Below are positions 44,042-59,393 of a stretch of 64,000 bases of DNA, piece after piece. The stretch is from contig AP025583.1 in NCBI GenBank assembly GCA_022846095.1, forward strand, positions 3,123,279 through 3,187,278, given 5' to 3'. This DNA is from Oscillospiraceae bacterium. GTDB taxonomy: Bacteria; Bacillota; Clostridia; Oscillospirales; Oscillospiraceae. The position numbers were made by a program, and so were the translations under genes. The notes under the pieces were generated by a model. That model ran no database searches. It was not told the origin of the DNA and was given only the letters and a program-made list of their open reading frames with translations. Within the stretch, counting starts at the first letter, position 1; every line of letters starts with the position of its first letter.

Positions 44042-45331
44042 TCAATTCTGCATCACGTCGATGATGACGACGTCCATTTCCTTCATGCCGTCGATGCACA
44101 CGCGGCCCAGGTTATGGATGGTCTCCTCTGCGCAGCGGTCAACCAGGCCGTCGCTGTTATCGATAATGTGGTCCCGCACGGCCAAGCTGGCCTGAAGCAC
44201 CGCCTCCGACGCGGCGGTGGCCAATTTGAGGGCGCAGCCGCCCTTAGCGCCGTCGCAGAGCATACCGGCGATGGAGCCCACCATGTTTTGGACCGCGCCC
44301 GCCATCTGGTCATCGGAACCGCCGAAGAGCCAGGTGATCGCCACCGCCGCCCCGATCCCCGCGGCTACGGCGCAGCCGCACACCGGCGAGAGCCGCCCGG
44401 TATACTCTTTGATGTAGGCGGTGGTGAGGTGGCTGATGGCCAGGGCGCGCAGCAGCTTGTCCCGGTCGTAGCCCATCTCCCGGCACACCACGGCCACCGG
44501 GATAATGGCGGTCAGGCCGTGGTTGCCGCTGCCCGCGCTGCTCATAACCGGGTGGTTCACGCCTGCCATACGGGCGTCGCAGGCGGCGGCGGTCATCTTC
44601 TTGGCCCGGTTGACCATATCGTCCAGGAGGATCCGGTCCCGGACCAACTGCCCGATGCCGTAACCGATGCCAATGCCGGAGCGTTCCCGGAGCCCGATCT
44701 CCGCCATCTCCATATTCATATCCACGCCGTCCATCAGAAATGCGATGTCCTCTGACGGTACCTGCTCTGCAAACGCGCGGATGTCGGACAGCCGTCCGCT
44801 TTTCAAACCATCCAGAAGGCTTGGCTCATTGGCGGAAGCGTGGGCCTCCCGCCTGGCGGCGGTATAAATGGGCACGCCGCTTCGCTCCAGATAGGTCACA
44901 TTGGTGTGGCTGTCCCGGATGACGCACACACCCGTGCTCCCATCCCCACTCCACACCTCGGCGCGGATGTAGAAGCTGCCCTCTTTCTCTTCCACCTGGA
45001 TGGACAGGGGCCGCTCGGAGAGGAATGTCCTGGCCTCCCGCACCGCCTGATCGTCCACGTGGCGGAAGACCTCCAGGTTGGCCTCCGGGTCGCCGCACAC
45101 CACCGCCAGAGCCACAGAGATGGGCAGCCCCTTTTCCGTGGTGCCCGGAACGCCTACGTGCATCCCGTTTTTATAGATGTTGGGGCTCACCAATACCTTG
45201 ACCTCGCTGACAGTGCCGCTTACCAGCGCCGCCGCTTTCGACACAGACAGCGCCACCGCCACGGGCTCGGTACAGCCCAGCGCCGGGACCACCTGCTTTC
45301 TGAGAATGGACACATATGCTTCTTGCTGCAC
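44042..45331 (-). CDS. YhaM/CyuA-family (UPF0597) L-cysteine desulfidase-like protein
   Basis: ~430 aa. Conserved PALGCTEPVAVAL and SSAGSGNHGLTAIIPV motifs match E. coli YhaM/CyuA (ALGCTEP; SNSGSGNQG). Start set at the GTG (MQQEAYV) spaced 9 nt from AGGAAAGG. Confidence 0.65.
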   Translation of the reverse strand: MQQEAYVSILRKQVVPALGCTEPVAVALSVSKAAALVSGTVSEVKVLVSPNIYKNGMHVGVPGTTEKGLPISVALAVVCGDPEANLEVFRHVDDQAVREARTFLSERPLSIQVEEKEGSFYIRAEVWSGDGSTGVCVIRDSHTNVTYLERSGVPIYTAARREAHASANEPSLLDGLKSGRLSDIRAFAEQVPSEDIAFLMDGVDMNMEMAEIGLRERSGIGIGYGIGQLVRDRILLDDMVNRAKKMTAAACDARMAGVNHPVMSSAGSGNHGLTAIIPVAVVCREMGYDRDKLLRALAISHLTTAYIKEYTGRLSPVCGCAVAAGIGAAVAITWLFGGSDDQMAGAVQNMVGSIAGMLCDGAKGGCALKLATAASEAVLQASLAVRDHIIDNSDGLVDRCAEETIHNLGRVCIDGMKEMDVVIIDVMQN

Positions 45332-45371
45332 GTCGCACACCCTTTCCTAAAGAAATAGCGGATATATCCGG

Positions 45372-46277
45372 TCAGTCGACTCTGGCTGCCGCCACCAGAA
45401 TGGCGTGATACTTATCCTCCGGGCTGTCGGTGCGGGAAGTCATAACCACGGGGGAGGTGGTGCCGCAGAGTGTGCCGGCGGTGGGGAGGTGGGCCAGGTA
45501 GGTCAAGGACTTGGTAAAGATATTGCCGGCACACAGGTCGGGCATCAGCAGAATATCTGCCCGGCCGGCCACATCGCTGACGATCCCCTTGTGGGCGGCA
45601 GCCGCGGCAGACACGGCATTGTCCAATGCAAGGGGGCCGTCCACGATGCAACCTGTAATCTGCCCCCGCTGCTGGGCTTTGCTGAGCATGGCGGCATCCA
45701 CTGTGGAGGGCATAGCGGGATTGATCACCTCTACCGGGGTCACCACGGCGGCCCGGGGACACTCAATCCCCAGACTGTGTGCCAGTGCCACGGCGTTTTT
45801 CAGGATCTTCAGTTTTTCCTCATAGGACGGGGTAATGTTCACCGCGCAGTCGCTGACGATCATCAGCCGGTTCTCGCCGGGGACCTCCAGCACTGTGGCC
45901 TGGCTGAGCATCCCTTTATCAGGCACGAAGCCGCAGGCCTTGTCCAGAATGGCGCGCATAAACACGGCAGTGGGCAGGATGCCCTTCATAGGGATGTCCG
46001 CCATACCCTCTTTCACCATACCGCAGGCCAGGGAGGCGGCACGGGCGTCGTCCGCCTCCTCCGTCAACTGCCACTGGGCCGGGTCCTCACCCATCTCCCG
46101 CAGCAGACCGGCGGTATCCGCCGTCCTGCCGATGAGAACGCCCTGGGCGACGCCCTTCCGCTGTGCCGCCACCAGGGCGGACAGCGCGTCTGCGTCATGG
46201 GCACCGGCCAAGGCGATGCGAACCCTTCGGCTGCTGTCCAGCAAGCTGCGCTCTATCTCTTGAAAGCTGTGAAACAT
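45372..46277 (-). CDS. ptb: phosphate butyryltransferase / phosphotransacylase (Ptb/Pta family)
   Basis: 301 aa. Phosphate acyltransferase family features (...IALAGAHDADALSAL...; C-terminal NIFTKSLTYL motif). Confidence 0.8.
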   Translation of the reverse strand: MFHSFQEIERSLLDSSRRVRIALAGAHDADALSALVAAQRKGVAQGVLIGRTADTAGLLREMGEDPAQWQLTEEADDARAASLACGMVKEGMADIPMKGILPTAVFMRAILDKACGFVPDKGMLSQATVLEVPGENRLMIVSDCAVNITPSYEEKLKILKNAVALAHSLGIECPRAAVVTPVEVINPAMPSTVDAAMLSKAQQRGQITGCIVDGPLALDNAVSAAAAAHKGIVSDVAGRADILLMPDLCAGNIFTKSLTYLAHLPTAGTLCGTTSPVVMTSRTDSPEDKYHAILVAAARVD

Positions 46278-46288
46278 GGTTTAATCCC

Positions 46289-47377
46289 TCACAATTCCGG
46301 TCCTGTCTCATTGGGAAAATTCAGAGCCTGACGCGCCCCGCGCAGCACATCATAGGCGCCCAGAGCCAAGGACTGCATCTCATACTCGCCTGGATACCGT
46401 ACCACGGGGGCGAGGAAGCCTACACGGCGCTTGATCTCTCCGGTCACCAGATCCGAATGGGCGATACCGCCAGTGAGCAGAATGGCATCCACCTTGCCGC
46501 AGAGCACCGCCGCACAGCCCGCCACCTCCTTGGAGATTTGGTAGCACATGGCCAGAAGTACCTCCAGGGCTCTCGGGTCCTCCTGGGCCATGCGTTCGGC
46601 TTGGCGCACGTCGCTGGTGCCTAGGTAAGCCGTTAGTCCGCCCTCCTTGCCCAGGATGCGCTTTACGTCATCCTTGGTGTACTGGCCGGAGAAGCACAGC
46701 TCCATCAGCGCGCCCACGGGTACGCCGCCGGTACGGTTGGTGGAGAAGGGGCCGTCACCCATGAGGCCGTTATTTGCGTCTACCATTTTGCCCTGCTTGT
46801 GGGCGGCTACGGTGATGCCGCCGCCCATATGGACCACTACCAGGTTCAGAGCTTCATAGGCGCGCCCAAGGTCCTTAGCATACTGCCGGCCAACCGCCCT
46901 GTGATTCAACGCGTGGAAGGAGCTCTTGCGGATGAATAGGGGATGACCGCTGTACCGGGCCAGAGGCTCGAACTCATCGGTGGTGGGCGGGTCAACGGTC
47001 AGGGGGAGCGGCCCCTCCTGGGCAAAGCGCCACACCAGCCGCAGGCCCAGATCAGTGGGATGCTGTCCGTACCTGCCGGAGCCCGACTGGCGCAGCATCT
47101 CTTCATTCACCCGGTAGACCCCGCCGGGTATGGGCTTGGTATGCCCGCCCCGGGTGACGATGGCGTCCAGCCCGGACATCTCCAGGCCGTGACGGGCGAG
47201 GAAATCCCGGATAGCCTGGGTGCGGAACGCCTCCTGATCCCAGATGGTTGAGAAGGCCTTGAGCTGGGCCGGGTCGTGCTCAAGGTCCTCCTGAAGCACC
47301 TTGGTATCGTTGCGGTAATAGGCGATCTTGGTGGAGGTGGACCCCAGGTTGATGGCTACAATCTGATATTCCTTCAC
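46289..47377 (-). CDS. buk: butyrate (short/branched-chain acyl) kinase
   Basis: 362 aa. Acetate/butyrate kinase family (INLGSTSTKIA N-terminus; ...VVHMGGGITVAAH...). Confidence 0.85.
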   Translation of the reverse strand: MKEYQIVAINLGSTSTKIAYYRNDTKVLQEDLEHDPAQLKAFSTIWDQEAFRTQAIRDFLARHGLEMSGLDAIVTRGGHTKPIPGGVYRVNEEMLRQSGSGRYGQHPTDLGLRLVWRFAQEGPLPLTVDPPTTDEFEPLARYSGHPLFIRKSSFHALNHRAVGRQYAKDLGRAYEALNLVVVHMGGGITVAAHKQGKMVDANNGLMGDGPFSTNRTGGVPVGALMELCFSGQYTKDDVKRILGKEGGLTAYLGTSDVRQAERMAQEDPRALEVLLAMCYQISKEVAGCAAVLCGKVDAILLTGGIAHSDLVTGEIKRRVGFLAPVVRYPGEYEMQSLALGAYDVLRGARQALNFPNETGPEL

Positions 47378-47388
47378 GCGCCCCCTCC

Positions 47389-48258
47389 TTAGACGGAGGC
47401 CGCGGCCAGGGCTTCGTAATGCCGCGACACGGTCTCCTGGATCAGCGCGCGGTCCTCCTGGCTGGCGCCCTTGAAACGGCCCTGCATGGATAAGTAGGTC
47501 TCCACCGGCTCCAGCGCCTTGGGCTTTACGTTGACGCGGACGCCGCCCGCCTCATATTCGTACAGCACCCATGCCCCGGTCTTGACCGCTTGGCGGCATA
47601 CCTCGATAGACTTGGCGGGCGGATACCCCCAGCCTGTGGGACAGGAGGCGTGGATATGCAGGAGAGAGGGGCCGTTCGTCTCCTGGGCCTTCTTTACCTT
47701 CTTGCGCAGGTCGGGGATGTAGGCTACCGAGGCGGTGGCGGCATAGGGGATCTTATGGGCAATGGCGATCTGGAGTAAGTCTTTCCGGGGGACCGGCTTG
47801 CCGCCGGGAGTGGTGGTAGTGCTCGCGCCCAGCGGCGTGGAGCTGGAGGACTGGATGCCGGTGTTCATATAGGCCTCGTTGTCATAGCACACGTAGAGCA
47901 CGCGGTCGCCCCGCTCCACCATGCCGGAGAAGGCCTGGATACCGATGTCCACGGTCGCCCCGTCGCCGGCAAAGGCCAGCACGGTGGTGTGGTGGTTGCC
48001 CTGCATCTCCAGCCCGGCCCGCACACCTGCGGCCACTGCCGCGGTATTCTCCAGATTCCCCTGGAAACCGGCGATCTTCATACCGGCCTCAGCTCCGAAC
48101 CCGCAGAACAGGGCGGAACAACCGGGGGGGATCAGGATAACGGTGTCCTGGCCCAGCACGTCAAGCACATTGCGGATCACGAGCTCCAGACCGCAGCCAG
48201 CACAGGCGCTGACGCCATGCGCGACCAGGCCGTCGCAATCCTTGATGATGTCATACAT
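47389..48258 (-). CDS. 2-oxoacid:ferredoxin oxidoreductase, beta (TPP-binding) subunit (Por/Vor-type)
   Basis: 289 aa. TPP-binding motif GDG.(25)N...CYDNEAYMNTG and the CxGCG cysteines. Confidence 0.85.
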   Translation of the reverse strand: MYDIIKDCDGLVAHGVSACAGCGLELVIRNVLDVLGQDTVILIPPGCSALFCGFGAEAGMKIAGFQGNLENTAAVAAGVRAGLEMQGNHHTTVLAFAGDGATVDIGIQAFSGMVERGDRVLYVCYDNEAYMNTGIQSSSSTPLGASTTTTPGGKPVPRKDLLQIAIAHKIPYAATASVAYIPDLRKKVKKAQETNGPSLLHIHASCPTGWGYPPAKSIEVCRQAVKTGAWVLYEYEAGGVRVNVKPKALEPVETYLSMQGRFKGASQEDRALIQETVSRHYEALAAASV

Positions 48259-48276
48259 ACTTTTTCGCTCCTTTGC

Positions 48277-49479
48277 TTATTGCGCCTTGAGGACCTGGCG
48301 CAGCTCCATAGCGTTTTCCTTAACGTCGATCCAAATGGAGCTGTCCGCCCCCTCGGGGTGAGCGCCGCCATCGGCAAACACGTCGCGGATGGTCTGGAGA
48401 CTGATGTCCCGGCCGCCCAGGCCGGCCACATAGCCTCGCACCGGCAAACCGCTGCCATATAGGGCGGCGGATATTTCGGTACACAGGGGAGCGAACCGGG
48501 CGCCCAAGCCGGCGCTGCGGTCCAGAACCAGCACCTGCTTTTTATCCTCCAGGTACCGGCGAACCAGCTCATAGGGGAAGGGACGGAAGGAGACGATCTT
48601 CAACAGGCCGACCTTTTGCCCCGACTGGCGCAGCTCGTTGACCACGCATTTGGCTGTGCCCGACATAGACCCTAAGGTGACCAGAACCGTGTCCGCGTCC
48701 TCCAGACAATATCCCTCCGCCCGCTCATGACAGCGGCCGAAACGGCTTTGGAACTCCCGAAACACCTCGTCCATCACGCCCTCGGCCTCGGCGAAACCGC
48801 GCTCCTGCTGATAGCGCATTTCACCGAACTCGTCGGACGGGGTCAGATTGCCCACCAGCATGGGGTCGACGGGGTCCACGTATAGGTTTCTGCGCACGTA
48901 GGGGCCGATGAAGGAATCCATTTCCGAGGTCTCGGGCACGCTCACCTTCTGCATGGAGTGGGATAGGAAAAAGCCATCCAGACAGACCATGCAGGGCAGC
49001 AGCACCTTCTCATGCTCCGCTACCCGGTAGGCGCAGGAGACCAGATCAAACACATCCTGTACGTTTTCGCAGTAGAGCTGCAGCCAGCCGCTGTCCCGCT
49101 CCTCCATGGAGTCCTGGTGGTCGCACCACAGGCTCCAGGGGGCGGCCAGGGCCCGGTTGACCACGGGCATGACGATGGGCATACGCAGCCCGGAGACTAC
49201 GTTGACGATCTCGTGCATCAGAGCCAGTCCCACGGAGGCGGTAGCGGTAGCGGTGCGCACACCGGTGAGCTGTGCCCCCAGAGCCACGGACAGGGCGGTA
49301 TGTTCCGATTCCACCCGCACATACTTCGCGTCAATCTCGCCGCACTGCACCATGTCCGCCAGCTTCTCCGCAATGGGGCTCTGGGGGGTGATCGGGTAGG
49401 CAGAGATCACCTTTACCTTCGCCATTTTTATGGCTTCCATGGCGGCGGCGTTTCCATCCAGCATTTTATAATGAGCCAT
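48277..49479 (-). CDS. 2-oxoacid:ferredoxin oxidoreductase, alpha subunit
   Basis: 400-aa PorA/VorA-like protein (MAHYKMLDGNAAAMEAIKMAKVKVISAYPITPQS...). Confidence 0.85.
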   Translation of the reverse strand: MAHYKMLDGNAAAMEAIKMAKVKVISAYPITPQSPIAEKLADMVQCGEIDAKYVRVESEHTALSVALGAQLTGVRTATATASVGLALMHEIVNVVSGLRMPIVMPVVNRALAAPWSLWCDHQDSMEERDSGWLQLYCENVQDVFDLVSCAYRVAEHEKVLLPCMVCLDGFFLSHSMQKVSVPETSEMDSFIGPYVRRNLYVDPVDPMLVGNLTPSDEFGEMRYQQERGFAEAEGVMDEVFREFQSRFGRCHERAEGYCLEDADTVLVTLGSMSGTAKCVVNELRQSGQKVGLLKIVSFRPFPYELVRRYLEDKKQVLVLDRSAGLGARFAPLCTEISAALYGSGLPVRGYVAGLGGRDISLQTIRDVFADGGAHPEGADSSIWIDVKENAMELRQVLKAQ

Positions 49480-49785
49480 TTACCGTTCCTCCTGCTCGTC
49501 CACCATCTGAATACACTGCTTGGGGCACTCGTTGGCGCAGATGCCGCATCCCTTGCAGTAGTCCCACATGATCTCAACGCATTCCGCCTTGTCCTTGTGA
49601 ATAGCGATCACGTTGGCCGGGCAGTACATGGCGCAGGTGCCACACTTGACGCAGTCTTCAAAATCCACAGCGGGCCGCTCCAGCCGCCAGCTTCCGGTAT
49701 TCGCGGAATCGAATTGATGGGCCACGGGGCCCCACACGTTACATCTCAATGGTGTTTTCATAGGCGTCTTTCGCGGCGTTTGCAT
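49480..49785 (-). CDS. 2-oxoacid:ferredoxin oxidoreductase, delta subunit (2x[4Fe-4S] ferredoxin)
   Basis: Two CxxCxxCxxxCP motifs (CVKCGTCAMYCP; CKGCGICANECP). Start set at MQTPRK after a GGAGAG ribosome-binding site; overlaps the gamma gene 3' end. Confidence 0.75.
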   Translation of the reverse strand: MQTPRKTPMKTPLRCNVWGPVAHQFDSANTGSWRLERPAVDFEDCVKCGTCAMYCPANVIAIHKDKAECVEIMWDYCKGCGICANECPKQCIQMVDEQEER

Positions 49786-50293
49786 TACGCTCTCCTGCCT
49801 TTCCTCCAAAAGTATCCCGCAAGGCGGTTTCTACCGAGGCCAAACTCACCGCCCCCGTTTTAGCCAGCGCCCCCAGCATGGCCCCGTTAGGGATTCCCCG
49901 GCCAATCTGACGGGTAGCAACGTGGGTGGCGTCCACGTAGTAGACCTTACAGAAGCCATATTGCTCCTGATACTCCCTTGCAGTGGTCTCGCTCTCGGTG
50001 TTTAGGACCAAAATGGTCTCCGTCCGCTTTCCCTTTCCGATGTCGATCCCTTTGTCCCGGATGGTCTGGTCCATCACCAGGACGATGTCCGGCTCGTACA
50101 CAAAGCAATTCTGGAGGATGGGTACGTCGTCGACTACGATGTCGGTATACACCGGCGCGCCACGGCGCTCATGACCGTATGCGGGTATGGTGATGGCGTA
50201 TTTATCCTCATGGATGGATACCGCGGTCGAGAGGACCTTGGCCGCCGTGACCACGCCCTGTCCCCCCAAACCATAGAATTTCAAGTTCAGCAT
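49739..50293 (-). CDS. 2-oxoacid:ferredoxin oxidoreductase, gamma subunit
   Basis: 184 aa, MLNLKFYGLGGQGVVTAAKVL... typical PorG/VorG N-terminus. AAGGAAG ribosome-binding site. The ORF-track entry is over-extended. Confidence 0.85.
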   Translation of the reverse strand: MLNLKFYGLGGQGVVTAAKVLSTAVSIHEDKYAITIPAYGHERRGAPVYTDIVVDDVPILQNCFVYEPDIVLVMDQTIRDKGIDIGKGKRTETILVLNTESETTAREYQEQYGFCKVYYVDATHVATRQIGRGIPNGAMLGALAKTGAVSLASVETALRDTFGGKAGERNANAAKDAYENTIEM

Positions 50294-50339
50294 ATTGTTG
50301 TCTTCCTTTCCCCGGGAACTTAATGGAACGAGAGCATGT

Positions 50340-51251
50340 TTAAGGGCCAATCGTCTGGTACATGCGCTTGATTTTGACCGCCGCCGCATCCAGCGTCGCC
50401 TGCTCCTGGTCCGATAGAGCCGGCTCCAGGAACTCCGACACACCGTTGGCGCCAATGCGCACCAGAACACCCAGGCTGACCGCGGAGTTGTGGTACTCAC
50501 CGTCCAGAATGATAGAACAAGGAAGGACCTCGCCCTTGTTTTCCGCCACGGCGCTGGCCAGGGCGGCCAGCCCGATACCGGAGGTCCAACCACTGGTGCG
50601 CCCGCTTTTCAGGCCCTGGTAGGCGGTAAACCAGCCGTCGATCTCCTCCAGCACTTGCTCTTTTTGCGCATCGCTCAGCTGTACCGGCATACCGTCCGCC
50701 TTCACTTGGTCCAGCAGAGGGACCATCATGCCGCCGTGCTCACCCAGGCACCATGCCTCTACCCTGTGGGCGGCGATGCCCAAAAGCTTGGCTACCGACC
50801 AGCGCAGGCGGGTGGTATCGTTGATGCAAAATCCTAAAATACGCCGCCGGTCGATGCCGGTGTGCTCCTGGATGACGCTGTTGAGCACATCCACCGGATT
50901 GACTGCGTTGATGATGACCTTGTTGGAGGACAGGCCCCGCAGCCGCTTACAGATCCCCACCAATATGCTCCGGTTCGCGTCAAGATAGGCGTCCCGGCTG
51001 GCGCTGCCAGTTTCAGGCACACTGGCGGTGATCATGATGACGTCACAGTCCTCCAAATCCTCGTACCCGGCCCGGACCACGCGGGTATCGGACAGAATGG
51101 AGATGCCCTGATCCATATCCATCACATGGCTTTGGAGTACGTTTTCCTTAATATCAATGAGTTTGATCTCTTCAAAAGAATTTCTGATACCCAGGCAGAA
51201 GGCGGCTGTACTGCCCAGCAGACCGGCGCCTCCAATTATAGCTAACTTCAT
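50340..51251 (-). CDS. L-lactate/malate dehydrogenase family 2-hydroxyacid dehydrogenase (NAD-dependent)
   Basis: 303 aa. KLAIIGGAGLLGSTAAF Rossmann N-terminus and LDH/MDH core. Confidence 0.75.
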   Translation of the reverse strand: MKLAIIGGAGLLGSTAAFCLGIRNSFEEIKLIDIKENVLQSHVMDMDQGISILSDTRVVRAGYEDLEDCDVIMITASVPETGSASRDAYLDANRSILVGICKRLRGLSSNKVIINAVNPVDVLNSVIQEHTGIDRRRILGFCINDTTRLRWSVAKLLGIAAHRVEAWCLGEHGGMMVPLLDQVKADGMPVQLSDAQKEQVLEEIDGWFTAYQGLKSGRTSGWTSGIGLAALASAVAENKGEVLPCSIILDGEYHNSAVSLGVLVRIGANGVSEFLEPALSDQEQATLDAAAVKIKRMYQTIGP

Positions 51252-51263: not shown

Positions 51264-52619
51264 TTAACTCTGGTTCTGAGCGAACTCTGCTTGGGCGCGT
51301 CGCAAAAGCTGCTCGTCCTGCACCAGGCGCAGCGCCACATCCGCAATGACCTGGGCCGCGTAATACATCCCCTTCTGACCAATGCTCCCCCCGGAACAGG
51401 CGGTAATTTGCCAGGTGTGACCGGGCGTGCCCACCGGCATACATGCGGTGAAGACCTGCACCGTAGGCACCCGCTGGCTCACATTCGACACGTCGGTGGA
51501 ACCCGCCAGATAGGCCGGATAAGGCTTGAGGGGGGTCACCCCCGTGTGCATGACTTGGCCGTCCAGCTCGGGTACCGAGAACTCTGTCAAGGCATTCCTG
51601 CGCACCTCTTGGGAAAAGCTCTCCTGAATGCGCTTGGCCAGGTCCAATTCGTCCCCGCTCCATGCCGGGCGGGGTATACGCTCCATGCTATCGTAGGCCA
51701 GCTCGTTGAGGGTCTTGTTCAGCTTGGTATTCTGGCAGCCGCTGAGGATCTCATAACCGAACTGAGTACCGGTCATCAGGGCCGCGCCCCTGCCTACGTC
51801 CAGCAGGCGGTCCACGATCTCGTCCACCTGGCTGCGGAGGGGAGCGCGCACATAGTACCAGGACTGGGCGGTGGCGGGCACCACGTTGGGCCGCCCTCCG
51901 CCGTTGGTGATGACATAGTGGATGCGGGCCTGGGAGACCACGTGCTCACGCAGATAGTTGGCGCCCACGTTCATCAATTCCACCGCATCCAGGGCGCTGC
52001 GCCCCTGCTCCGGCGCAGCCGCGGCGTGGGCGCTCTTGCCGGTGAAATTGAATTGCAGGGAGGTCATAGCGGAATAGGCGTAGTCGCACACCGTGTTGCT
52101 GGCCATGGGGTGCCAGGCCAGGCAGGCGTCCAGGCCGGAAAACACACCGGCGTCATCCATCCGGATTTTGCCCACCATGATTTCCTCGGCGGGGCAGCCG
52201 TAGAAGTGGAGGGTACCGGATAATCCGTCCCGCTCCATCAGTTCCTTGAGTACTACAGCCGAGCCCGCCAGGCCAACGCCCAGCAGGTTGTGGCCGCAGG
52301 CATGGCCGGGCGCACCCTGACTCACAGGCGCTCGCTCGGCCTGGGCCTTCTGGCTCATCTCGGGCAGGGCGTCGTATTCCCCCAAGAAGCCCAGGTGTGG
52401 CGCTCCGGTCCCCCATACCGCCTCGAAGGCGGTGCCCATTTCAGCCAGACCGGAGCGGATGGAGAAGCCGTGCTCCTCCAGATAGCGTTTCAGCGCATCG
52501 GCGGAACGGGTCTCCTCCAGGGGCAGCTCTGCATAGCCCCATATCTCCTCACTCAGAGATTTGAGTTCACTGGCGTGCCGCTCCACACCCGCGATGATCT
52601 CGTCTTTATAATCTTTCAT
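51264..52619 (-). CDS. M20-family amidohydrolase (AbgB / N-carbamoyl- or N-acyl-L-amino acid amidohydrolase-like)
   Basis: 451 aa. Metal-binding HACGHN motif and M20D dimerisation-domain organisation. Confidence 0.8.
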   Translation of the reverse strand: MKDYKDEIIAGVERHASELKSLSEEIWGYAELPLEETRSADALKRYLEEHGFSIRSGLAEMGTAFEAVWGTGAPHLGFLGEYDALPEMSQKAQAERAPVSQGAPGHACGHNLLGVGLAGSAVVLKELMERDGLSGTLHFYGCPAEEIMVGKIRMDDAGVFSGLDACLAWHPMASNTVCDYAYSAMTSLQFNFTGKSAHAAAAPEQGRSALDAVELMNVGANYLREHVVSQARIHYVITNGGGRPNVVPATAQSWYYVRAPLRSQVDEIVDRLLDVGRGAALMTGTQFGYEILSGCQNTKLNKTLNELAYDSMERIPRPAWSGDELDLAKRIQESFSQEVRRNALTEFSVPELDGQVMHTGVTPLKPYPAYLAGSTDVSNVSQRVPTVQVFTACMPVGTPGHTWQITACSGGSIGQKGMYYAAQVIADVALRLVQDEQLLRRAQAEFAQNQS

Positions 52620-52918
52620 AGCGTCACCAGGTCTTTCACTACGTGGCTGTTTTTCGGTTCCAGGACGAGACAGTCGCTCTCCGCCCGGCAGGTACAGGCC
52701 AGCGTTACCGCGCCGTTGACCTTAACGGCACACCGGCCGCATACCCCTTGGTTGCAGACGCTGTGGCGGTAATAGGACAGCGTGCCGTCCAGCCTCTCCC
52801 GGATGTAGTCCAACACATCCATGACGGTATAGCCATCCTCCGGGGTGTAAGGCACATCATAGCGGTCATACCGCCGTTCCCCTGTCTCCGGGGTATAGCG
52901 CAGGATTTTTACCTCCAT
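52616..52918 (-). CDS. small [2Fe-2S] iron-sulfur protein (SdhB/FrdB N-terminal-domain-like)
   Basis: 100 aa. CNQGVCGRCAVKVNG ...C matches the plant-type 2Fe-2S motif of succinate DH/fumarate reductase Fe-S subunits. Overlaps the M20 gene start by 4 nt. Confidence 0.65.
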   Translation of the reverse strand: MEVKILRYTPETGERRYDRYDVPYTPEDGYTVMDVLDYIRERLDGTLSYYRHSVCNQGVCGRCAVKVNGAVTLACTCRAESDCLVLEPKNSHVVKDLVTL

Positions 52919-52930
52919 GTTCCAAGCTCC

Positions 52931-54724
52931 TTACAGCAGCTGCGCCAAATAGGCGGCCACAGTGTCGTAGTCTTCCGTTGGCGGCGCCAGCGGCCCGGGG
53001 GCGGGGACGATCTTGCCCTGGAACAGCCTTCCTTCCGCCAGCCGGTGGGTGATACGGTAAAAGTAAAGCGAGTTATAGACTTGAGGGATGTCGCTGCGTA
53101 TATGGGTGCCCCGGCTCTCCCGCCGCATGAGGGCGGCGGTGAGGCCCGCCCTGGTGCATGGCAGCAAATTGCGCAAGGTGAGGTAGTCAAAGAAGTCCAG
53201 GTCGTATGCCCGGCTTCCGCCGGGGATGGCGACCCGGGCCAGTTCCGCCTCAAGCTCGTCCAGAGCGGCCAAGGCACGCTCCATACGGCGGGCGTCTCGC
53301 ACGACGCCCATACCCTCGTCGGCGGTCTGCTCCAAGCGGCGCAGGAGGGTCACGCTGCGTGGACCGCCTTTTCGGGCGCGTACCTGCTCCAATTCCTCAA
53401 CGAGGGATTCCGCCTGCTGGGACAGGTCGGGGATGAGGCCGACCTGTCCGGCGTATTCCGCTGCGCTCAGGCCGGCACGGTACCCGTGGGCCAGCATCTC
53501 GGTGAGGCCGTCCCCTGCGCGGAACGCACCGAATAGTCCGCTGGTCACCTCGCCTGCGGCAAACAAGCCGGGCAGGTCGGTGGCCATGTGCTCGTCAATG
53601 ACCACACCCCCGTTGCTATACTCATTCCCCAGGGCAAACTCCAATCTACGGGTGCGCAGGATGTCATCCCGCAGCCGGTACAGGTCCACACCGTTGTACG
53701 TGCCCCGCCTGTGCCAGCGCCCATAGTGGTCGATGAAATGCTCGAAGGCGGCGCAGATCTCTTCATCGCTGTGCTCCGAGTAGTCGTAATACAGCCCGCC
53801 GCGGATTCCTTCATTGGAGGTCCCTTGGCCAGTCCAACAATAGCTGTAAATAAGTTTGAGCATCTTGTTGCTTCCCGGAACCTTGGAAAACGTGTCGGGG
53901 AGGGAGAGCTCCCGGCCGCTTGCGTCACGCACCTTGAAGGATAGAGGCATAAAGATCGGGATGGTAAACAGATACGGGAGAATGGACCCTTTTAAGTAGG
54001 GCGGCGACACCGCCGTGGGGATATAGAGCAGGAATTCCATATCCGAGATGCGGGCTCCGGCGCGCAGCGCCATGGCCATGCCGTCCCCGGTCATATCGCT
54101 GATGGAGTTCTTCAGGCTGTGGGGCTGGTAGCCCCCGGTAGCCAGTACGGTGCTCTTTGCCGTAATGGCTACATAGTTCCCGGTATACAGCTCGTAGCAC
54201 AAAGCGCCGTGCACACACCCGTCCTGGGTAAGCAGATCCACGGCCGCCGTGTCGTCCAACACCGTCAGGCTGGGGATCTCCCGTACACCCTGCTGGATGG
54301 CCTTGCCCACGCCGCTGCCCGACACCGCGTACAGACCGCTCTTCACAAAGGTAAAGTTCTGCCTTGCCTCCTTGGCCCAGGTGAGAAATTCCTTCATCAT
54401 CACCGGAGCATCCTCTACGAACTGGCGGGCCAGCCTCTGGTCCCCCAAGTAAAAGGATGACTTCACGATCTTCTCTACTAATTGGTCAGGGCCGAAGCTC
54501 TCGTCCGCCTGGGCCTCGCCCAGAATGCAGCGGGACTGGTAGCCGTCGATACCAAAACCGCCGCCCACCATGAGAGCGTTGCCGCTGCGGCCGGTGCGGC
54601 CCTTGGAAACCAGAATGACCTGTTTTCCCTGCCGCGCCGCAGTCCAGGCCGCGGACACCGCAGCCCCTGACCCGCCGACACACAGCACGTCACAGGAGAG
54701 CTGTTTAACCTCAAAGCGTTCCAC
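52931..54724 (-). CDS. FAD-dependent oxidoreductase of the fumarate reductase/succinate dehydrogenase flavoprotein family
   Basis: 597 aa. N-terminal FAD motif VLCVGGSGAAVSAA. FrdA/SdhA-like FAD and capping domains. C-terminal R..H...R substrate-binding-like residues (ESRGTHIR). Confidence 0.75.
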   Translation of the reverse strand: MERFEVKQLSCDVLCVGGSGAAVSAAWTAARQGKQVILVSKGRTGRSGNALMVGGGFGIDGYQSRCILGEAQADESFGPDQLVEKIVKSSFYLGDQRLARQFVEDAPVMMKEFLTWAKEARQNFTFVKSGLYAVSGSGVGKAIQQGVREIPSLTVLDDTAAVDLLTQDGCVHGALCYELYTGNYVAITAKSTVLATGGYQPHSLKNSISDMTGDGMAMALRAGARISDMEFLLYIPTAVSPPYLKGSILPYLFTIPIFMPLSFKVRDASGRELSLPDTFSKVPGSNKMLKLIYSYCWTGQGTSNEGIRGGLYYDYSEHSDEEICAAFEHFIDHYGRWHRRGTYNGVDLYRLRDDILRTRRLEFALGNEYSNGGVVIDEHMATDLPGLFAAGEVTSGLFGAFRAGDGLTEMLAHGYRAGLSAAEYAGQVGLIPDLSQQAESLVEELEQVRARKGGPRSVTLLRRLEQTADEGMGVVRDARRMERALAALDELEAELARVAIPGGSRAYDLDFFDYLTLRNLLPCTRAGLTAALMRRESRGTHIRSDIPQVYNSLYFYRITHRLAEGRLFQGKIVPAPGPLAPPTEDYDTVAAYLAQLL

Positions 54725-54742
54725 TGGCGGAGCTCCTTCCTT

Positions 54743-55219
54743 TTACGCCTCGTCCCCGTAGGTGAAGTGCATCACACACTCGTCGTCGCCGCGGCCTTTG
54801 CACTTAGGACGATCCAGATGGAAGCCGAAGCCGCCGTATAGGGTGTAGTCGATCTCACAGTACAGGCACTCCAGCTTACGGCCCAGCTCTCCGTACTTTT
54901 TCCATACCTCGTCGAACAGGCACTGCTTGACCACGCCCCGTTCGTCGCCGTTGATCCAGCCGCAATCGGGCATGTCGCGCACCTTAAAGAACTGCTCAAA
55001 GTCGGTGACCGCAACGCCCTTCTCGGCGGCCTCCTCCTTGATGCAGGCCACCCGGTATTCACCAAACTCCTTCAGCGCCGCCCTGATAAGCTCGGCGCCC
55101 TTTTCCTCGCCCAGCGCCGCGAAAATATGTTTGCCCATGTAGTAGTAGCACTCCGCCATCAGTTTGCCGAAGCGGATGCCCTCGCTCTCGTCGTGATGTA
55201 CCTTACTCATATCGTACAT
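54743..55219 (-). CDS. small cysteine-rich protein, possibly L-2-amino-thiazoline-4-carboxylate (ATC) hydrolase-like family
   Basis: 158-aa ORF in an operon position between the TRAP transporter and the flavoprotein. Family assignment is tentative, from remembered similarity to ATC-hydrolase-domain proteins. Confidence 0.4.
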   Translation of the reverse strand: MYDMSKVHHDESEGIRFGKLMAECYYYMGKHIFAALGEEKGAELIRAALKEFGEYRVACIKEEAAEKGVAVTDFEQFFKVRDMPDCGWINGDERGVVKQCLFDEVWKKYGELGRKLECLYCEIDYTLYGGFGFHLDRPKCKGRGDDECVMHFTYGDEA

Positions 55220-55245
55220 AGTGGTCTACTCCTTTCAAATCTTGG

Positions 55246-56514
55246 TCATTTCATCATATTTGGCAGCAGCATAGTGATCTGAGGTACGAAACTGATCACC
55301 AAAGTGACCGCAACTAGGATTAGCAGGAAGGGCAACACGCCCTTGACGATTTGCCCCATACTTTTCTTCCGCATGCCCATGGTTACATAGAGATTGAGAC
55401 CGAAGGGCGGGCTCAGATAAGAAATCTGGGAGTTCATGACAGCGATGATGCCGAAGTGGATGGGGTCAATCCCATAAAAGCCCAGGGTGGGCGCCAGAAT
55501 GGGGCCTAGGATGACGATCATAGCAATCAGGTCCATAAAGCAGCCGCAAATGAAGAAAAGAGCGGTCAAAATCAGGATAAATGCGACCTTGCTGGACACG
55601 TAGGTGGTGATCCAGGTGGAAATAAGAGTGGGAATCTGCTGTGTGGTGATGAACCAGTTGAGTACGGCTGCACAGGAGATGATAAAGATGATGGCGCCGG
55701 AGGTGACCAGAGCGCTGAAGCACTCGTTGACGATGTCCTTCACGCTCATGGTGCGGTAGACCAGCAATTCAACCAAAATGACGTAGATCAAGGCGATGGC
55801 GGCCGCCTCGGTGGGGGTCGCAAATCCCAGATAGATGCCGCCCAGCACGATCAGGGGGTAGATCAGGGCCAGGACGCTCTGCTTCCAAATCTCCTTCTTC
55901 TCTTCCTTGGTGTAGGTCTTGGTATCCTGAATATTTCCTTTTTTACACTTGAAGTAGACGTAGACGCTCCAAACGATAGCCAGCAGGATTCCGGGCAGGA
56001 AGCCCGCCATAAACTGCTTGCCGACCGAGGTGCCCATAGCCACACAAATCATAATCATGGGGGCGCTGGGCGGGATAAGCATTCCGATGGAACCCGCTGA
56101 GGTAATTGCCCCCTCCGCCAGCTCCTCAGAGTAGCCCATGTCGATGAGGGCCGGAATCATGATGGTGCCGATGGCCACCACGGTGGCCATACTGGAGCCT
56201 GAAATGGCGGCGAAGAACGTACAGGCCACGATGGAAGCAATAATGCTGCCGCCTTTGATACGCCCAAAGGCCAGACGCATGACGTTGATGAGGTTTTTGG
56301 CGATATTCCCCTTGGCCGCTACATTGCCGGCCATAATAAAGAAGGGGATGGCCAGCAACACAAAGTTGTTGAGGCCGTTGAACATCTGCTGTACCACAAT
56401 TAGGGCAGGGACATTGGAGTAGGCTACCACGCCGGCAGCGGAGGCTATGAGGACCACCAAGGAGATAGGTACGCCAATCAAAAGCAACACAACAAATGCG
56501 ACGACAACAATCAT
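55246..56514 (-). CDS. dctM: TRAP transporter large permease subunit (DctM family)
   Basis: 422 aa, ~12 TM helices, DctM-like. Start overlaps the dctQ stop. Confidence 0.9.
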   Translation of the reverse strand: MIVVVAFVVLLLIGVPISLVVLIASAAGVVAYSNVPALIVVQQMFNGLNNFVLLAIPFFIMAGNVAAKGNIAKNLINVMRLAFGRIKGGSIIASIVACTFFAAISGSSMATVVAIGTIMIPALIDMGYSEELAEGAITSAGSIGMLIPPSAPMIMICVAMGTSVGKQFMAGFLPGILLAIVWSVYVYFKCKKGNIQDTKTYTKEEKKEIWKQSVLALIYPLIVLGGIYLGFATPTEAAAIALIYVILVELLVYRTMSVKDIVNECFSALVTSGAIIFIISCAAVLNWFITTQQIPTLISTWITTYVSSKVAFILILTALFFICGCFMDLIAMIVILGPILAPTLGFYGIDPIHFGIIAVMNSQISYLSPPFGLNLYVTMGMRKKSMGQIVKGVLPFLLILVAVTLVISFVPQITMLLPNMMK

Positions 56515-57026
56515 GAAGCTTCCGCCTCCTTCTTTTCAGCTGCCTTGCGGCCAACAGTTCGGGGTTCCAAATATATCTCCATCAGAAACCGCACACACAT
56601 AACCGTGGAGCAGATAGGCATGATGGCGAAGGGCACAAATACCGGCATTCCCCACAGAGAGGAGGTCAGGGTGCCGATCCGAATGTAGTTGCTCAATTGG
56701 ATCCAGGAGTAGTAGGCTACAACGCCCATGCCCACACAGCAGATCAGGTTGCTGAGTATACCCATGGCCTGCTTGAGCCGCAGGGGGACGGAGTCTTTGA
56801 TGGCGGTCATACTGGGGTGGTTGTGACCTTTGACGGCGATGCTGGCGCCCAGGAAGGTGCCATAGACCATAATGTAGCGCCCCAGCTCCTGGAGCCACGA
56901 CAGACCAAAGTGGAAGAACTTGCGGGAGAACACCTCAAACACGATGCACAGGCCCAATAATAAAAAGGGGCAGACCAACAGATACTTCTCGATGGAGTCA
57001 ATCAGACATGCGATTTTTTTCATCAT
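56511..57026 (-). CDS. dctQ: TRAP transporter small permease subunit (DctQ family)
   Basis: 171 aa with 4 TM helices, immediately upstream of dctM. Confidence 0.85.
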   Translation of the reverse strand: MMKKIACLIDSIEKYLLVCPFLLLGLCIVFEVFSRKFFHFGLSWLQELGRYIMVYGTFLGASIAVKGHNHPSMTAIKDSVPLRLKQAMGILSNLICCVGMGVVAYYSWIQLSNYIRIGTLTSSLWGMPVFVPFAIMPICSTVMCVRFLMEIYLEPRTVGRKAAEKKEAEAS

Positions 57027-57109
57027 GTCGCCTCCTCAAATGCAGTTTGGAGAATGCCGCGGCCGGCCGATGCCGGCCGCGGCATTCTCGCTGAGAGGGA
57101 AGTGGGGGG

Positions 57110-58186
57110 CTATTGTTTCAAATCGGCCACAAAATTATAGTAGTCCTCGCCGATGATGGGGATGTACTTGTCATACACGGGCTGCACCAGGTCACGGAAG
57201 GCCTGGAACTCGTCGTCGGTCAGCATGATCACCTCTACTCCTAGTTCCTCCTCCGCCTTCTGGTAAGCGCCGTTGTCAGAGCTGTTGGCCTCGTCCACCA
57301 GAATGGCCTCCACTTCCTTGCAGGCCTGGCGCAGCTGCTCCTGCTGCTCAGGGGACAGCTTCTGCCAAGTCTGGTCGGAGACCAACAGGGGGCTGAGCTG
57401 GAAATAGTGCATGGTATTCGTAAAGTACTTGGCGACCTCTGTAAACTTCATCATGTTGGAGGCGAAGATACCGTTGTCCAAGCCGTCAATAACATTCTGC
57501 TGGAGCGCAGTGTATACCTCACCAAAGGCAAGCTGGGAGGTGGTCACGCCCATTGCCTCAAATGTGTCCGCCAGGATGGAACCGGTGTTCACACGAATCT
57601 TCAAGTCACGCAAGTCCTCTGGTGTGCGTACGGAATGCTTGGTGTTCAGAATACCGCGGGCGGCCATCAGGGGAACGCCCAGGAAGTGGATACCCTTGCC
57701 CTCCACAATTTCGCGGGTGCGCAGGTAATAGTCCTCATTGGTGATCACGGAGCCCACCTGCTCAAAGCTATTGAAGAAGAACGGGAGCACAATGGAGTTA
57801 AACTCCGGGATCGCCGTCGCAGCCACATTGGCGGAGATGATGCCCATGTCCATGGTCCCAGAGAAGATGGAGTCCAGCATGGTCTCCTCACTTCCCAGCT
57901 GTCCATTTGGATAAATCTCAATGAGGACGGCGCCGCCGGTCAGCTCCTCCACAGCCTCCTTAAACTTCACAGCGTTGGCGTGCATATCGGAGGTGTCAGG
58001 GGAAATGTGGCCGAAGGAGAGGGTAATGGGCTTATCCGCAGTGGGATAATTGGAGGTGTCACCCGCCGCCTGGGTAGGCTGCACGCTGCCGGTTTGTTTG
58101 CCGCCGGAGCCCGAGTCACAGGCTGACAGCAGAGAAACGCACATGGTCAGAGCAAGAACGAGGCTGATCGCTTTTTTCATGTTCAT
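57110..58186 (-). CDS. dctP: TRAP transporter substrate-binding protein (DctP family), lipoprotein
   Basis: Signal peptide with lipobox (LLSACD). DctP family fold (358 aa). Confidence 0.85.
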   Translation of the reverse strand: MNMKKAISLVLALTMCVSLLSACDSGSGGKQTGSVQPTQAAGDTSNYPTADKPITLSFGHISPDTSDMHANAVKFKEAVEELTGGAVLIEIYPNGQLGSEETMLDSIFSGTMDMGIISANVAATAIPEFNSIVLPFFFNSFEQVGSVITNEDYYLRTREIVEGKGIHFLGVPLMAARGILNTKHSVRTPEDLRDLKIRVNTGSILADTFEAMGVTTSQLAFGEVYTALQQNVIDGLDNGIFASNMMKFTEVAKYFTNTMHYFQLSPLLVSDQTWQKLSPEQQEQLRQACKEVEAILVDEANSSDNGAYQKAEEELGVEVIMLTDDEFQAFRDLVQPVYDKYIPIIGEDYYNFVADLKQ

Positions 58187-58604
58187 AAAGACCTCCTTAG
58201 AATGATGAGACTAACCAATCTCTCCCGCGCTGGTATACTTGCTGTGGCTGTGCTACACTAACATATATGATATCGACCTCCTATCAGTAGGTTTTGTTCC
58301 TTTATACGAAACTAAGTTTCACATAAAGAGGGAAAAGAAATCCTCACTCATCGAGAGAGGATTTGCGGAGCAGAAAAGCGTTGTTAGGGTTCGCTATGCG
58401 AAAATGAGTTTCTTATACTTAAATAATACACCCATCAGAATAAAAAGGGAACAGCTTTTTGCTCGCTACAGGCCGAAAATGCACGACGATTTTTGTCGAA
58501 TTGTAACAAGAAAAATACCGAATATTGTCTTTAAAATACAGATTCTTCCACAGAAAGAAATAAAATACTCCCCCAGCATAAAGCCGGAGGAGTGTTCTTA
58601 AGCT

Positions 58605-59393
58605 TTAGGGCTTTTCCAAATATCCCATAGCACGCGAGATGTCGGCGGCGGTTTTTTTCACGGATGTCACCAGCGCCTGCCGGTTCTGCCGCATCCGGAC
58701 AGAGGGGCCTGATATGCTGATTGCAGCGACTACCTTGCCCTTAAAGTCCCGGATTGGGCCAGAATAACATACCAGTCCGATCTCGCTTTCCTCAATGTCC
58801 TCACCATAGCCGTTCTCACGGATTTTGCTCAGTGTGGACCGCAGGGATTCTTTGCTGGTGATGGTTGTCTCGGTATACTTGATAAACTCGATGCTGCTCA
58901 GTGCCTTTTCAAGCTCCTCCGAGCTGAGGTAGGCCAGCAGGACCTTCCCGTTTCCGGTACAGTATGAGGGGAGTTGCTCTCCGATCTGGGAGGACATTTG
59001 GATGGAGCTGTTTCCCATTTCCTTATCCATGACAATGATGTCCCGGTAAGTCTTGTCCAGGATGGCGATGTGGGTGGTCTCATTGAATTCATCCCGAAGA
59101 ACCTGGAGGAAGGGTTTTGCGGTCTCCACCACGCTCTGACGTCCCAGGAGATTGGCCCCGTAATGGGCGAATTTCATACCCAGTTTGTACCGCGCTTGAT
59201 TCGTTTTATGGACATAACCACAGTATTCCAGTGTATACAGCAGGCGGAACGCGCTTGCCTTGCCGATGTCCAGTTCTCTGCATATCTCCGTGAGGCTTAG
59301 CTCGTTCTCCTTATTAAGCAGGTCCATGATTTTCAAGGCGTTTGATACTGAGCCAAGTAGGTATTTGTCATCCATTTCATCCCGCCTTTCCAT
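58605..59393 (-). CDS. IclR-family transcriptional regulator
   Basis: N-terminal IclR HTH (LSLTEICRELDIGKASAFRLLYTLEYCGYV) plus C-terminal effector-binding domain. Confidence 0.85.
   Translation of the reverse strand: MERRDEMDDKYLLGSVSNALKIMDLLNKENELSLTEICRELDIGKASAFRLLYTLEYCGYVHKTNQARYKLGMKFAHYGANLLGRQSVVETAKPFLQVLRDEFNETTHIAILDKTYRDIIVMDKEMGNSSIQMSSQIGEQLPSYCTGNGKVLLAYLSSEELEKALSSIEFIKYTETTITSKESLRSTLSKIRENGYGEDIEESEIGLVCYSGPIRDFKGKVVAAISISGPSVRMRQNRQALVTSVKKTAADISRAMGYLEKP

Follow-up and report, generated by a model that had tools for sequence, protein, structure and literature searches.

A flavoprotein, a [2Fe-2S] protein and an ATC-hydrolase-like protein in an operon of a gut Oscillospiraceae bacterium: a possible route from a masked cysteine to pyruvate, H2S and ATP

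We have analyzed a 64,000-nucleotide stretch of DNA from an Oscillospiraceae bacterium (GenBank assembly GCA_022846095.1, contig AP025583.1, positions 3,123,279 to 3,187,278 of the forward strand), referred to here as the window, and in particular an operon on its minus strand. This encodes a TRAP (tripartite ATP-independent periplasmic) transporter, a protein related to 2-aminothiazoline-4-carboxylate (ATC) hydrolase that we call ATCh, a flavoprotein with a small [2Fe-2S] partner, an M20 amidohydrolase, a relative of lactate and malate dehydrogenases (LDH and MDH), a 2-oxoacid:ferredoxin oxidoreductase (OFOR), the acyl-phosphate enzymes Ptb and Buk, and a CyuA-like protein. A check of the open reading frames (ORFs) in the window gave 16 on the minus strand between 59393 and 44042; fifteen are structural genes running from dctP to cyuA (58186-44042), and the other encodes an IclR-family regulator. 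The operon proteins are those of the human-gut 'Oscillospiraceae bacterium' CE91-St40/St41. An identical cluster was found on independent metagenome contigs, where the gene calls agree with the corrected starts of OFOR gamma (50293, 184 residues) and delta (49785, 101 residues). The features are listed below. Pfam matches are those above the gathering score, and NCBIfam scores are given with the cut-off of the model.

58605-59393, minus strand: IclR-family regulator, 262 residues (HTH_IclR and IclR_C)
58187-58604, no strand assigned: AT-rich IclR-dctP intergenic region of 418 nt, read from the sequence
57110-58186, minus strand: DctP, lipoprotein-like TRAP solute-binding protein, 358 residues (PF03480 233 bits; NF037995 195, cut-off 50)
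56511-57026, minus strand: DctQ, small TRAP permease (PF04290 88 bits)
55246-56514, minus strand: DctM, large TRAP permease (PF06808 364 bits; TIGR00786 383, cut-off 268)
54743-55219, minus strand: ATCh, ATC-hydrolase-like protein, 158 residues (PF14196 42.6 bits, cut-off 28.1, profile positions 4-145 of 145)
52931-54724, minus strand: FrdA/NadB-like FAD flavoprotein, 597 residues (FAD_binding_2 113.6 bits, Succ_DH_flav_C 63.2 bits)
52616-52918, minus strand: [2Fe-2S] protein, 100 residues, equivalent to the N-terminal domain of SdhB/FrdB (Fer2_3 77.5 bits)
51264-52619, minus strand: M20D amidohydrolase of the aminoacylase/AbgB/HmrA type, 451 residues (Peptidase_M20 and M20_dimer; TIGR01891 241, cut-off 154)
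50340-51251, minus strand: LDH/MDH-family 2-hydroxyacid dehydrogenase (Ldh_1_N and Ldh_1_C)
49739-50293, minus strand: OFOR gamma, 184 residues (PF01558, POR, 119 bits; TIGR02175 160, cut-off 81)
49480-49785, minus strand: OFOR delta, ferredoxin-like with 2x[4Fe-4S], 101 residues (Fer4; TIGR02179 85, cut-off 60)
48277-49479, minus strand: OFOR alpha (POR_N and PFOR_II; PorA_Arch 454, cut-off 550)
47389-48258, minus strand: OFOR beta, thiamine pyrophosphate-binding (TPP_enzyme_C; VorB-type 333, cut-off 405; PorB 311, cut-off 405)
46289-47377, minus strand: Buk, butyrate-kinase-family acyl kinase (Acetate_kinase family; NF002834 446, cut-off 222; TIGR02707 420, cut-off 289)
45372-46277, minus strand: Ptb-type phosphotransacylase (PTA_PTB 143 bits; TIGR02706 316, below its cut-off of 410)
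44042-45340, minus strand: CyuA/CdsB-type [4Fe-4S] L-cysteine desulfidase, 432 residues (SDH_alpha 200 bits)
43998-44031, no strand assigned: GC-rich hairpin of 15 bp between the convergent cyuA and LpdD-like genes

A sequence-only reading of this DNA had described a tightly packed, IclR-headed operon of fourteen genes. The packing is indeed tight, with gaps of no more than 83 nt from dctP to cyuA, overlaps of 4 nt at dctQ/dctM and at fer2/M20, and a further overlap between the OFOR gamma and delta genes; the coordinates raise the count to 15 structural genes plus IclR. Every domain named in that reading was recovered with Pfam and NCBIfam, and the searches returned PF14196 and Peptidase_M20, not unrelated families, for the 158-residue and M20 proteins. 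The placing of IclR at the head of the operon has to be revised. The IclR gene has its own promoter-like site (59466-59438) and terminator-like hairpin (58593-58567), each a match to consensus only, and the 418-nt gap separates it from dctP, so that it is probably transcribed on its own. The gap presumably holds the promoter and operator of the operon. Two short palindromes in it, both perfect, are candidate operators: TTCGCATAGCGAA (58402-58390) and GAAACTTAGTTTC (58320-58308). A plus-strand ORF of 120 residues across the gap (58239-58601), called on the metagenome contigs, matches nothing in Pfam and is unlikely to be a real gene. At the other end the strong hairpin at 43998-44031 closes the operon, probably as a bidirectional terminator.

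The flavoprotein falls well outside the named families that it resembles. Its top NCBIfam match is TfrA (199 bits against a cut-off of 718), NadB scores 121 against 453, and no curated NCBIfam model reaches its cut-off. Alignment with mycobacterial SdhA and with NadB (7d6v, 5kxj) shows that both of the histidine residues that hold the substrate have been replaced. The first, in FHPT, is Ile in the YIPT of the flavoprotein, and the second, in CHYVMGG or AHYTCGG, is Glu368 in NEYSNGG, which is invariant within the subfamily. These histidines are H232 and H355 in the numbering of E. coli FrdA. The carboxylate-binding Arg402 is retained, so that the protein probably still binds a carboxylate beside the flavin, and the same alignment shows no covalent-FAD histidine. 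The loss of both substrate-binding histidines shows that the flavoprotein is none of fumarate reductase, succinate dehydrogenase and L-aspartate oxidase, and we rejected these functions. It belongs to a subfamily without prior characterization, whose members (35-98% identity) carry only the names 'FAD-binding protein' or 'succinate dehydrogenase flavoprotein'. In the public annotation of the source genome 52931-54724 is named 'succinate dehydrogenase flavoprotein subunit', which the residue checks make unlikely.

Its partner is reduced to a single iron-sulfur domain. The Fer2_3 match spans residues 3-98 of 100, the C-terminal [4Fe-4S]/[3Fe-4S] domain of SdhB/FrdB is absent from the Pfam matches, and TIGR00384 gives 66 bits, short of its cut-off of 88. 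The cysteines Cys55, Cys60, Cys63 and Cys75 are all retained.

ATCh falls within PF14196, as the sequence-only reading had suspected, with a score above the cut-off, and a long form of the protein in a related locus (L005) reaches 83 bits. No curated NCBIfam family matches ATCh. A search of the PDB with the 158-residue sequence gave no significant match; the fold search was informative, and returned a V4R/Bet3-type fold. In the family alignment C100, C121, D82, P84, W88, Y120 and D124 are invariant and C148 nearly so, and the conserved cysteine triad suggests a metal site. The family is small, with 984 representatives at E ≤ 1e-3 among 1.84 billion. According to the Pfam description, its only member known to have been characterized (in the AtcB/AtcC pathway) is a thiazoline-ring-opening enzyme that acts together with an amidohydrolase of the M20 type.

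We have compared about 115 related loci, drawn from genomes, look-ups of single homologs and 80 metagenome loci found with the flavoprotein alignment. Lineage counts refer to 36 dereplicated metagenome lineages with at least 7 kb of sequence, in which gene presence near the flavoprotein was scored by tblastn. The Fer2_3 gene adjoins the flavoprotein gene in 17 of 17 genome or contig loci and in all 36 lineages. The flavoprotein and the 100-residue [2Fe-2S] protein are the invariant core of the module. An M20 gene is present in 23/36 lineages (about 64%) and ATCh in 20/36; a hidden Markov model finds the ATCh domain in 69 of 98 loci, many of the rest being contigs that end early. CyuA-like genes occur in 14/36 (about 39%), where chance would give roughly 0.2 of 36 by our estimate, such genes being rare in genomes.

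Gene fusions bind these components further. ATCh is fused to Fer2_3 (P0183 and P0284), to the flavoprotein in proteins of about 850 residues (L010 9188-11791, L118, L159 and L170), to M20 (P0310), to a nitroreductase (P0304) and to a protein with an NAD(P) Rossmann domain (L124). It follows from the fusions that ATCh, the flavoprotein, the [2Fe-2S] protein and the M20 enzyme work together, and thus that the flavoprotein pair is no side activity. ATCh is accordingly predicted to be a partner or third subunit of the flavoprotein. Many ATCh-family proteins are tandem duplications of about 340 residues or a 245-residue long form with an extra half-repeat (L133-L137, L140-L147; P0282, P0305, P0323), and some loci have two or three copies.

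What surrounds this set varies. The transporters include TRAP, fused TRAP, Nramp-like, NhaC and ABC types (sulfonate/SsuA, peptide/Dpp and amino-acid/Liv), and the regulators IclR, sigma-54 activators, MarR and GntR. In two loci a pyridoxal phosphate (PLP) enzyme of cysteine/methionine metabolism takes the place of CyuA, and in four a sigma-54 activator and a cdsB-like gene precede the module, as in the published CdsR-cdsB arrangement of clostridial cysteine catabolism (PMC6615313). An OFOR recurs in three lineages, including L160, where it is of the same subtype and the flavoprotein is 46% identical. The LDH-like, Buk and Ptb genes are confined to the lineage of the window (L001, L084 and L092), and are thus lineage-specific additions. 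Gene order is kept in L084 and L092 at 58-74% protein identity, and IclR adjoins the module in these two and in L160. A short-chain dehydrogenase/reductase or a nitroreductase-family protein is frequent beside the module. The nitroreductase neighbors have weak BluB and NfsA matches only in NCBIfam and none to an azoline dehydrogenase, leaving a role as azoline or azole dehydrogenases unsupported. A 375-residue protein with an F420_oxidored/ProC-type NAD(P) Rossmann domain lies directly upstream of the flavoprotein gene in loci that lack ATCh (L006 8790-9914, L098-L100, L113), and is fused to the ATCh domain in L124 (4723-6567) and L125. It has no PDB relative by sequence or profile, and only its N-terminal F420_oxidored Rossmann domain was matched (in L006 and L124), so that we set aside its identification as a pyrroline-5-carboxylate reductase.

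The CyuA-like protein has kept all the catalytic residues of a solved CyuA. NCBIfam has no curated family for it, and it aligns with the MmCyuA structure (9fsl) at E = 4e-35. The published structure defines as catalytic residues a Cys, a Glu, the cluster cysteines and an anion site of Arg, Asn and Lys (PMC12647591). In the window protein the GCTEP sequence at residues 22-26 supplies Cys23 and Glu25, and Cys321 (with Cys323), Cys363 and Cys370 align with the strictly conserved cluster cysteines C287, C329 and C336 of MmCyuA. The anion-site residues align as the Arg of DARM, the Asn of SGNHG and the Lys of CALK. The YhaM/CyuA-like assignment of the sequence-only reading holds, and the protein would turn cysteine into pyruvate, NH3 and H2S.

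The M20 protein has HmrA (1e-38) and a Xaa-Arg dipeptidase as its top PDB matches, with YxeP also among the matches, and groups with the M20D aminoacylase, AbgB and HmrA enzymes. No carbamoylase- or hydantoinase-type model matches it at E ≤ 1e-3. An N-acyl intermediate is therefore likelier than N-carbamoyl-cysteine, and ATC itself appears unlikely as the natural substrate. The public annotation of 51264-52619 is 'aminobenzoyl-glutamate utilization protein B'.

The remaining enzymes could draw energy from the product. All four subunits of a Por/Vor-type OFOR are encoded, the best PDB match of the alpha subunit being the corresponding subunit of a pyruvate:ferredoxin oxidoreductase (9bt4_B, 1e-92). 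The LDH-like enzyme keeps R109 (SASRD), R171 (DTTRLR) and H195 (GEHG) on alignment with MalDH. At the specificity position, LDH residue 102, which is Gln in LDH and Arg in MDH, it has Glu80 (VPE in place of IPR); the motif with Glu is kept in L084 and L092. All its NCBIfam scores are below the cut-offs (the highest is 199 against 283) and its best matches are malate dehydrogenases. Given the Glu, neither malate nor lactate dehydrogenase is a safe name, and the residue check makes unlikely the 'malate dehydrogenase' of the public annotation of 50340-51251. The transporter is assigned to the TRAP class by the joint presence of DctP, DctQ and DctM in Pfam and NCBIfam. The best PDB relatives of DctP (E about 1e-37) bind varied ligands and are uninformative about its substrate.

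We tentatively propose that the operon is inducible and serves the catabolism of a small carboxylate taken up from outside, a masked cysteine or cysteine adduct that is converted to pyruvate, H2S and ATP, a proposal to which we give a little less than even weight. We infer the chemical steps and the nature of the substrate from the gene content, associations, fusions, and residues kept or lost. DctPQM would import the acid, as its family suggests. The FAD protein, the [2Fe-2S] protein and ATCh with its putative Cys3 metal site would carry out a redox reaction on the ring and open the resulting thiazoline to N-acyl-L-cysteine, electrons passing between FAD and the 2Fe-2S center and on to ferredoxin. 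The partnership in this step is seen in gene adjacency and fusions; its chemistry is inferred. The M20D enzyme, from its family and the M20-ATCh fusion, would strip the acyl group, and CyuA, with its complete catalytic residues, would convert cysteine to pyruvate, NH4+ and H2S. On family assignments the OFOR would then form acyl-CoA and reduced ferredoxin, and Ptb and Buk would yield ATP. In the weakest of the steps, the LDH-like enzyme might serve as a redox valve between 2-oxo and 2-hydroxy acids. The separately transcribed IclR would sense the substrate or an intermediate.

Conversion of the substrate to cysteine is indicated by the recurrent set of a transporter, ATCh, flavoprotein, [2Fe-2S] protein, M20D and CyuA, by the PLP enzyme that replaces CyuA, and by the sigma-54/cdsB context. 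Fermentation of cysteine to ATP by way of CyuA is established in E. coli (PMC9040844), and the final stage of the proposed route is similar to it. Stated generally, the catabolism of a cysteine-yielding conjugate centered on a new flavoenzyme is reasonably probable. The ring-opening precedent in PF14196, together with the oxidation of thioproline by a flavoprotein, points to thiazolidine- or thiazoline-4-carboxylates; an aldehyde-cysteine adduct of this kind (such as thioproline or its 2-alkyl relatives) is the most likely substrate, although so specific an identification is doubtful. In the published reaction thioproline is oxidized by a flavoprotein to 2,3-thiazoline-4-carboxylate, which hydrolyzes to cysteine and formate (bioRxiv 10.1101/2020.03.19.981027). 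It is equally speculative that the flavoprotein, [2Fe-2S] protein and V4R-fold ATCh form an unrecognized O2-independent enzyme that opens sulfur heterocycles, here aldehyde-cysteine adducts such as thioproline, and with M20D and CyuA a widespread anaerobic pathway by which bacteria of gut and sediment would regain cysteine from these adducts and turn it into H2S, pyruvate and ATP.

Several points weigh against this proposal. The chemistry of FrdA- and NadB-type enzymes normally takes place beside the carboxylate, and to convert thioproline to the delta2-thiazoline the enzyme would have to oxidize C2-N3, away from that group. V4R folds are chiefly familiar as ligand-binding domains, and we know of hydrolase activity documented for one PF14196 member only. 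The CyuA-like gene is missing from about 60% of lineages, and also from L084, an operon of 74% identity. The variety of transporters suggests that substrates may differ between loci. Ptb and Buk, rather than Pta and Ack, hint at an acyl group longer than acetyl, and the pathway does not account for the Glu kept at LDH position 102.

In a rival, Stickland-type scheme the substrate would be an N-acylated or dipeptide-bound amino acid. M20D would free the amino acid and the NadB-like flavoprotein with its [2Fe-2S] protein would dehydrogenate it to the 2-oxo acid, with ATCh a substrate-binding or imine-handling subunit and CyuA a parallel entry for cysteine; the OFOR, Ptb and Buk would give a short or branched acid and ATP, and the LDH-like enzyme would balance the redox state. 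Ptb and Buk with a Por/Vor-type OFOR make up the classical route for branched-chain 2-oxoacids, and the beta subunit scores highest with the Vor-type model. The closest relatives of the flavoprotein with solved structures include L-aspartate oxidase, M20D enzymes are aminoacylases and dipeptidases, and some loci have peptide-type ABC transporters and an M24 Xaa-Pro-type peptidase. Yet both of the histidines by which NadB and FrdA hold their substrate have gone, most loci have no OFOR, Ptb or Buk, and the scheme explains neither the fusions of ATCh to M20, Fer2_3 and the flavoprotein nor the recurrence of CyuA-like and Cys/Met PLP enzymes. We consider it unlikely. The flavoprotein might instead act as a reductase. 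The canonical reaction of the fumarate reductase family is the reduction of a carboxylate-conjugated double bond, and Arg402 is kept; an alpha,beta-unsaturated or heteroaromatic acid such as thiazole-4-carboxylate could be reduced at C4=C5, beside the carboxylate, to a thiazoline, with electrons from OFOR-reduced ferredoxin by way of the [2Fe-2S] protein, and then pass to ATCh, M20 and CyuA in a redox-balanced fermentation. The OFOR, tied to the module in three lineages, would provide low-potential electrons, and nitroreductase-family flavoproteins recur in the module, one fused to ATCh. These neighbors lack the azoline-dehydrogenase match, however, OFOR is not nearby at most loci, and neither guts nor sediments are known to be rich in free thiazole carboxylates, so that such a reduction seems rather unlikely. 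A third group of substrates would be S-conjugates such as S-(2-succino)cysteine (2SC) or a mercapturate, deacetylated by M20D, desaturated in the S-linked acid moiety by the SdhA-like protein and hydrolyzed by ATCh at the vinyl thioether to give cysteine and a 2-oxo acid for CyuA, the MDH-like enzyme and the OFOR. The resemblance of the flavoprotein to SdhA/FrdA, the malate dehydrogenase matches of the LDH-like enzyme and the sulfonate- and dicarboxylate-type transporters of the module are consistent with this, as is YxeP (1ysj), an M20D relative that deacetylates N-acetylcysteine in the 2SC pathway of B. subtilis. The flavoprotein has nevertheless lost the dicarboxylate-binding histidines and the LDH-like enzyme has Glu for the Arg102 that defines MDH, and we judge S-conjugate cleavage improbable.

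The example pathway of the sequence-only reading, taken literally, has a stand-alone ATC hydrolase that opens ATC to N-carbamoyl-cysteine, an M20 carbamoylase, and the flavoprotein pair as an accessory reductase. The PF14196 match is real, as is the association of ATCh, M20 and CyuA, now borne out by conserved neighborhoods and fusions in distant anaerobes, and the logic of import leading to ATP can be kept. The carbamoylase step is unsupported, the M20 protein being of the TIGR01891 aminoacylase type with no carbamoylase match, and the accessory role is at odds with a flavoprotein/2Fe-2S pair that is the invariant core and to both parts of which ATCh is found fused. ATC is moreover an adduct of cyanide and cystine and not plausible as a widespread nutrient. 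With its families and the ATCh/M20/CyuA link upheld, and the carbamoylase, accessory reductase, IclR head and gene count revised, the literal ATC pathway is very unlikely. The transport, flavoenzyme, OFOR/Ptb/Buk and CyuA modules might finally be merely adjacent by chance and serve no single pathway; the G+C content is about 0.50-0.57 at 54-60 kb against 0.60-0.64 at 44-54 kb, and LDH, Buk and Ptb are specific to the lineage. Against this, the gaps are short and stop and start codons overlap, terminator-like hairpins that fit the layout occur after IclR and after cyuA, order is kept in L084 and L092, and the core genes co-occur and fuse across phyla. A chance assembly of this kind we regard as highly improbable.

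Compared with systems already described, what is known is the superfamily of each part and the principle of a catabolic operon ending in substrate-level phosphorylation; what is new is the three-part flavoenzyme and its linkage to CyuA. In the library searched, the literature on ATC hydrolase and PF14196, cysteine desulfidase with a flavoprotein, thioproline and N-formylcysteine, and thiazolidine catabolism of anaerobes offered no account of the module. AtcB and AtcC of Pseudomonas sp. BS, from which PF14196 takes its Pfam name, reportedly convert L-2-aminothiazoline-4-carboxylate to L-cysteine. The proposed pathway shares with them a PF14196 protein, an M20-superfamily amidohydrolase and a cysteine product formed by ring opening and then N-deacylation. 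It differs in having an M20D aminoacylase and not a carbamoylase, in tying PF14196 to an FAD/2Fe-2S enzyme that is absent in Pseudomonas, and in being catabolic in a strict anaerobe. The desulfidase is of the same family as those of CyuA/CyuP in E. coli and CdsR-CdsB in Clostridioides difficile, and as MmCyuA, with catalytic and cluster residues conserved. As in those systems cysteine-derived pyruvate would be fermented for energy, and several related loci have a sigma-54 activator before a cdsB-like gene. Unlike CyuA/CyuP, the operon has no CyuP-type importer, and the desulfidase ends a 15-gene operon after enzymes presumed to generate cysteine.

The flavoenzyme invites two comparisons. In thioproline detoxification by PutA, as in what we propose here from the genes alone, a flavin dehydrogenates the ring, the thiazoline is hydrolyzed and cysteine is released. 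The flavoprotein has an FrdA-like fold, unrelated to the TIM barrel of PutA; its electrons would leave by Fe-S centers instead of the respiratory chain, and the hydrolysis would be enzyme-catalyzed. With SdhAB/FrdAB, TfrAB and NadB it shares FAD_binding_2 and Succ_DH_flav_C, an SdhB-type 2Fe-2S partner and the carboxylate-binding Arg. It departs from all of them in the exchange of His for Ile and Glu, the lack of the covalent-FAD His and scores far below the curated cut-offs, and from SdhB/FrdB in a partner without the [4Fe-4S]/[3Fe-4S] domain and in having no membrane anchor. The downstream genes follow the gamma-delta-alpha-beta order of Por/Vor-type OFOR systems, and then a phosphotransacylase and a butyrate-kinase-family kinase; here the PorA and VorB/PorB equivalog scores are below cut-off, and the genes form part of a larger operon that also encodes an atypical LDH-like enzyme.

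If the proposal is correct, gut Firmicutes and spirochaetes have an added route to H2S from cysteine derivatives, beyond free cysteine or sulfonates. It would also give a function to a flavoprotein family now mislabeled 'succinate dehydrogenase' in genome annotation, and a physiological context to PF14196, a small family with about 1000 representatives at 50% identity. With so many gene fusions, the enzyme complex is open to direct testing. Whatever the substrate, the flavoprotein/2Fe-2S/V4R unit is an uncharacterized type of redox enzyme found in several anaerobe phyla.

The G+C content of the window falls from 0.60-0.64 (44-54 kb) to 0.47-0.57 over IclR, dctPQM, ATCh and the genes upstream (54000-63000). 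Just upstream of the operon lie a GntR-family protein of 488 residues (60003-61469, plus strand) and a tyrosine integrase (61975-62829, plus strand), and a serine recombinase is found on the equivalent side in L084. The fall in G+C and the integrase and recombinase neighbors suggest that the cluster is mosaic or was horizontally acquired. Convergent with the operon are three plus-strand genes, for a UbiD-family decarboxylase (41588-43075), a UbiX-type flavin prenyltransferase (43080-43646) and a small LpdD/PAC_bac-like protein (43631-43987). The trio, which looks like a phenolic-acid decarboxylase set, flanks the L084 cluster as well. A divergent LysR regulator lies within the minus-strand ORF 40577-42094; its LysR domains begin at about residue 213, hence the true start is later.

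Further away, a plus-strand ORF of 1809 residues (32835-38264) has no Pfam match and is a high-GC artefact. The real genes there are on the minus strand and encode two 5'-nucleotidase/metallophosphoesterase surface proteins, at 32838-34871 (with LysM) and 35049-38261 (with SLH, Y_phosphatase3 and SAM_HAT_C). At 1900-5088 a protein of 1062 residues made up of about 20 Sel1 repeats (804 bits) lies beside a radical-SAM protein (5120-6205).

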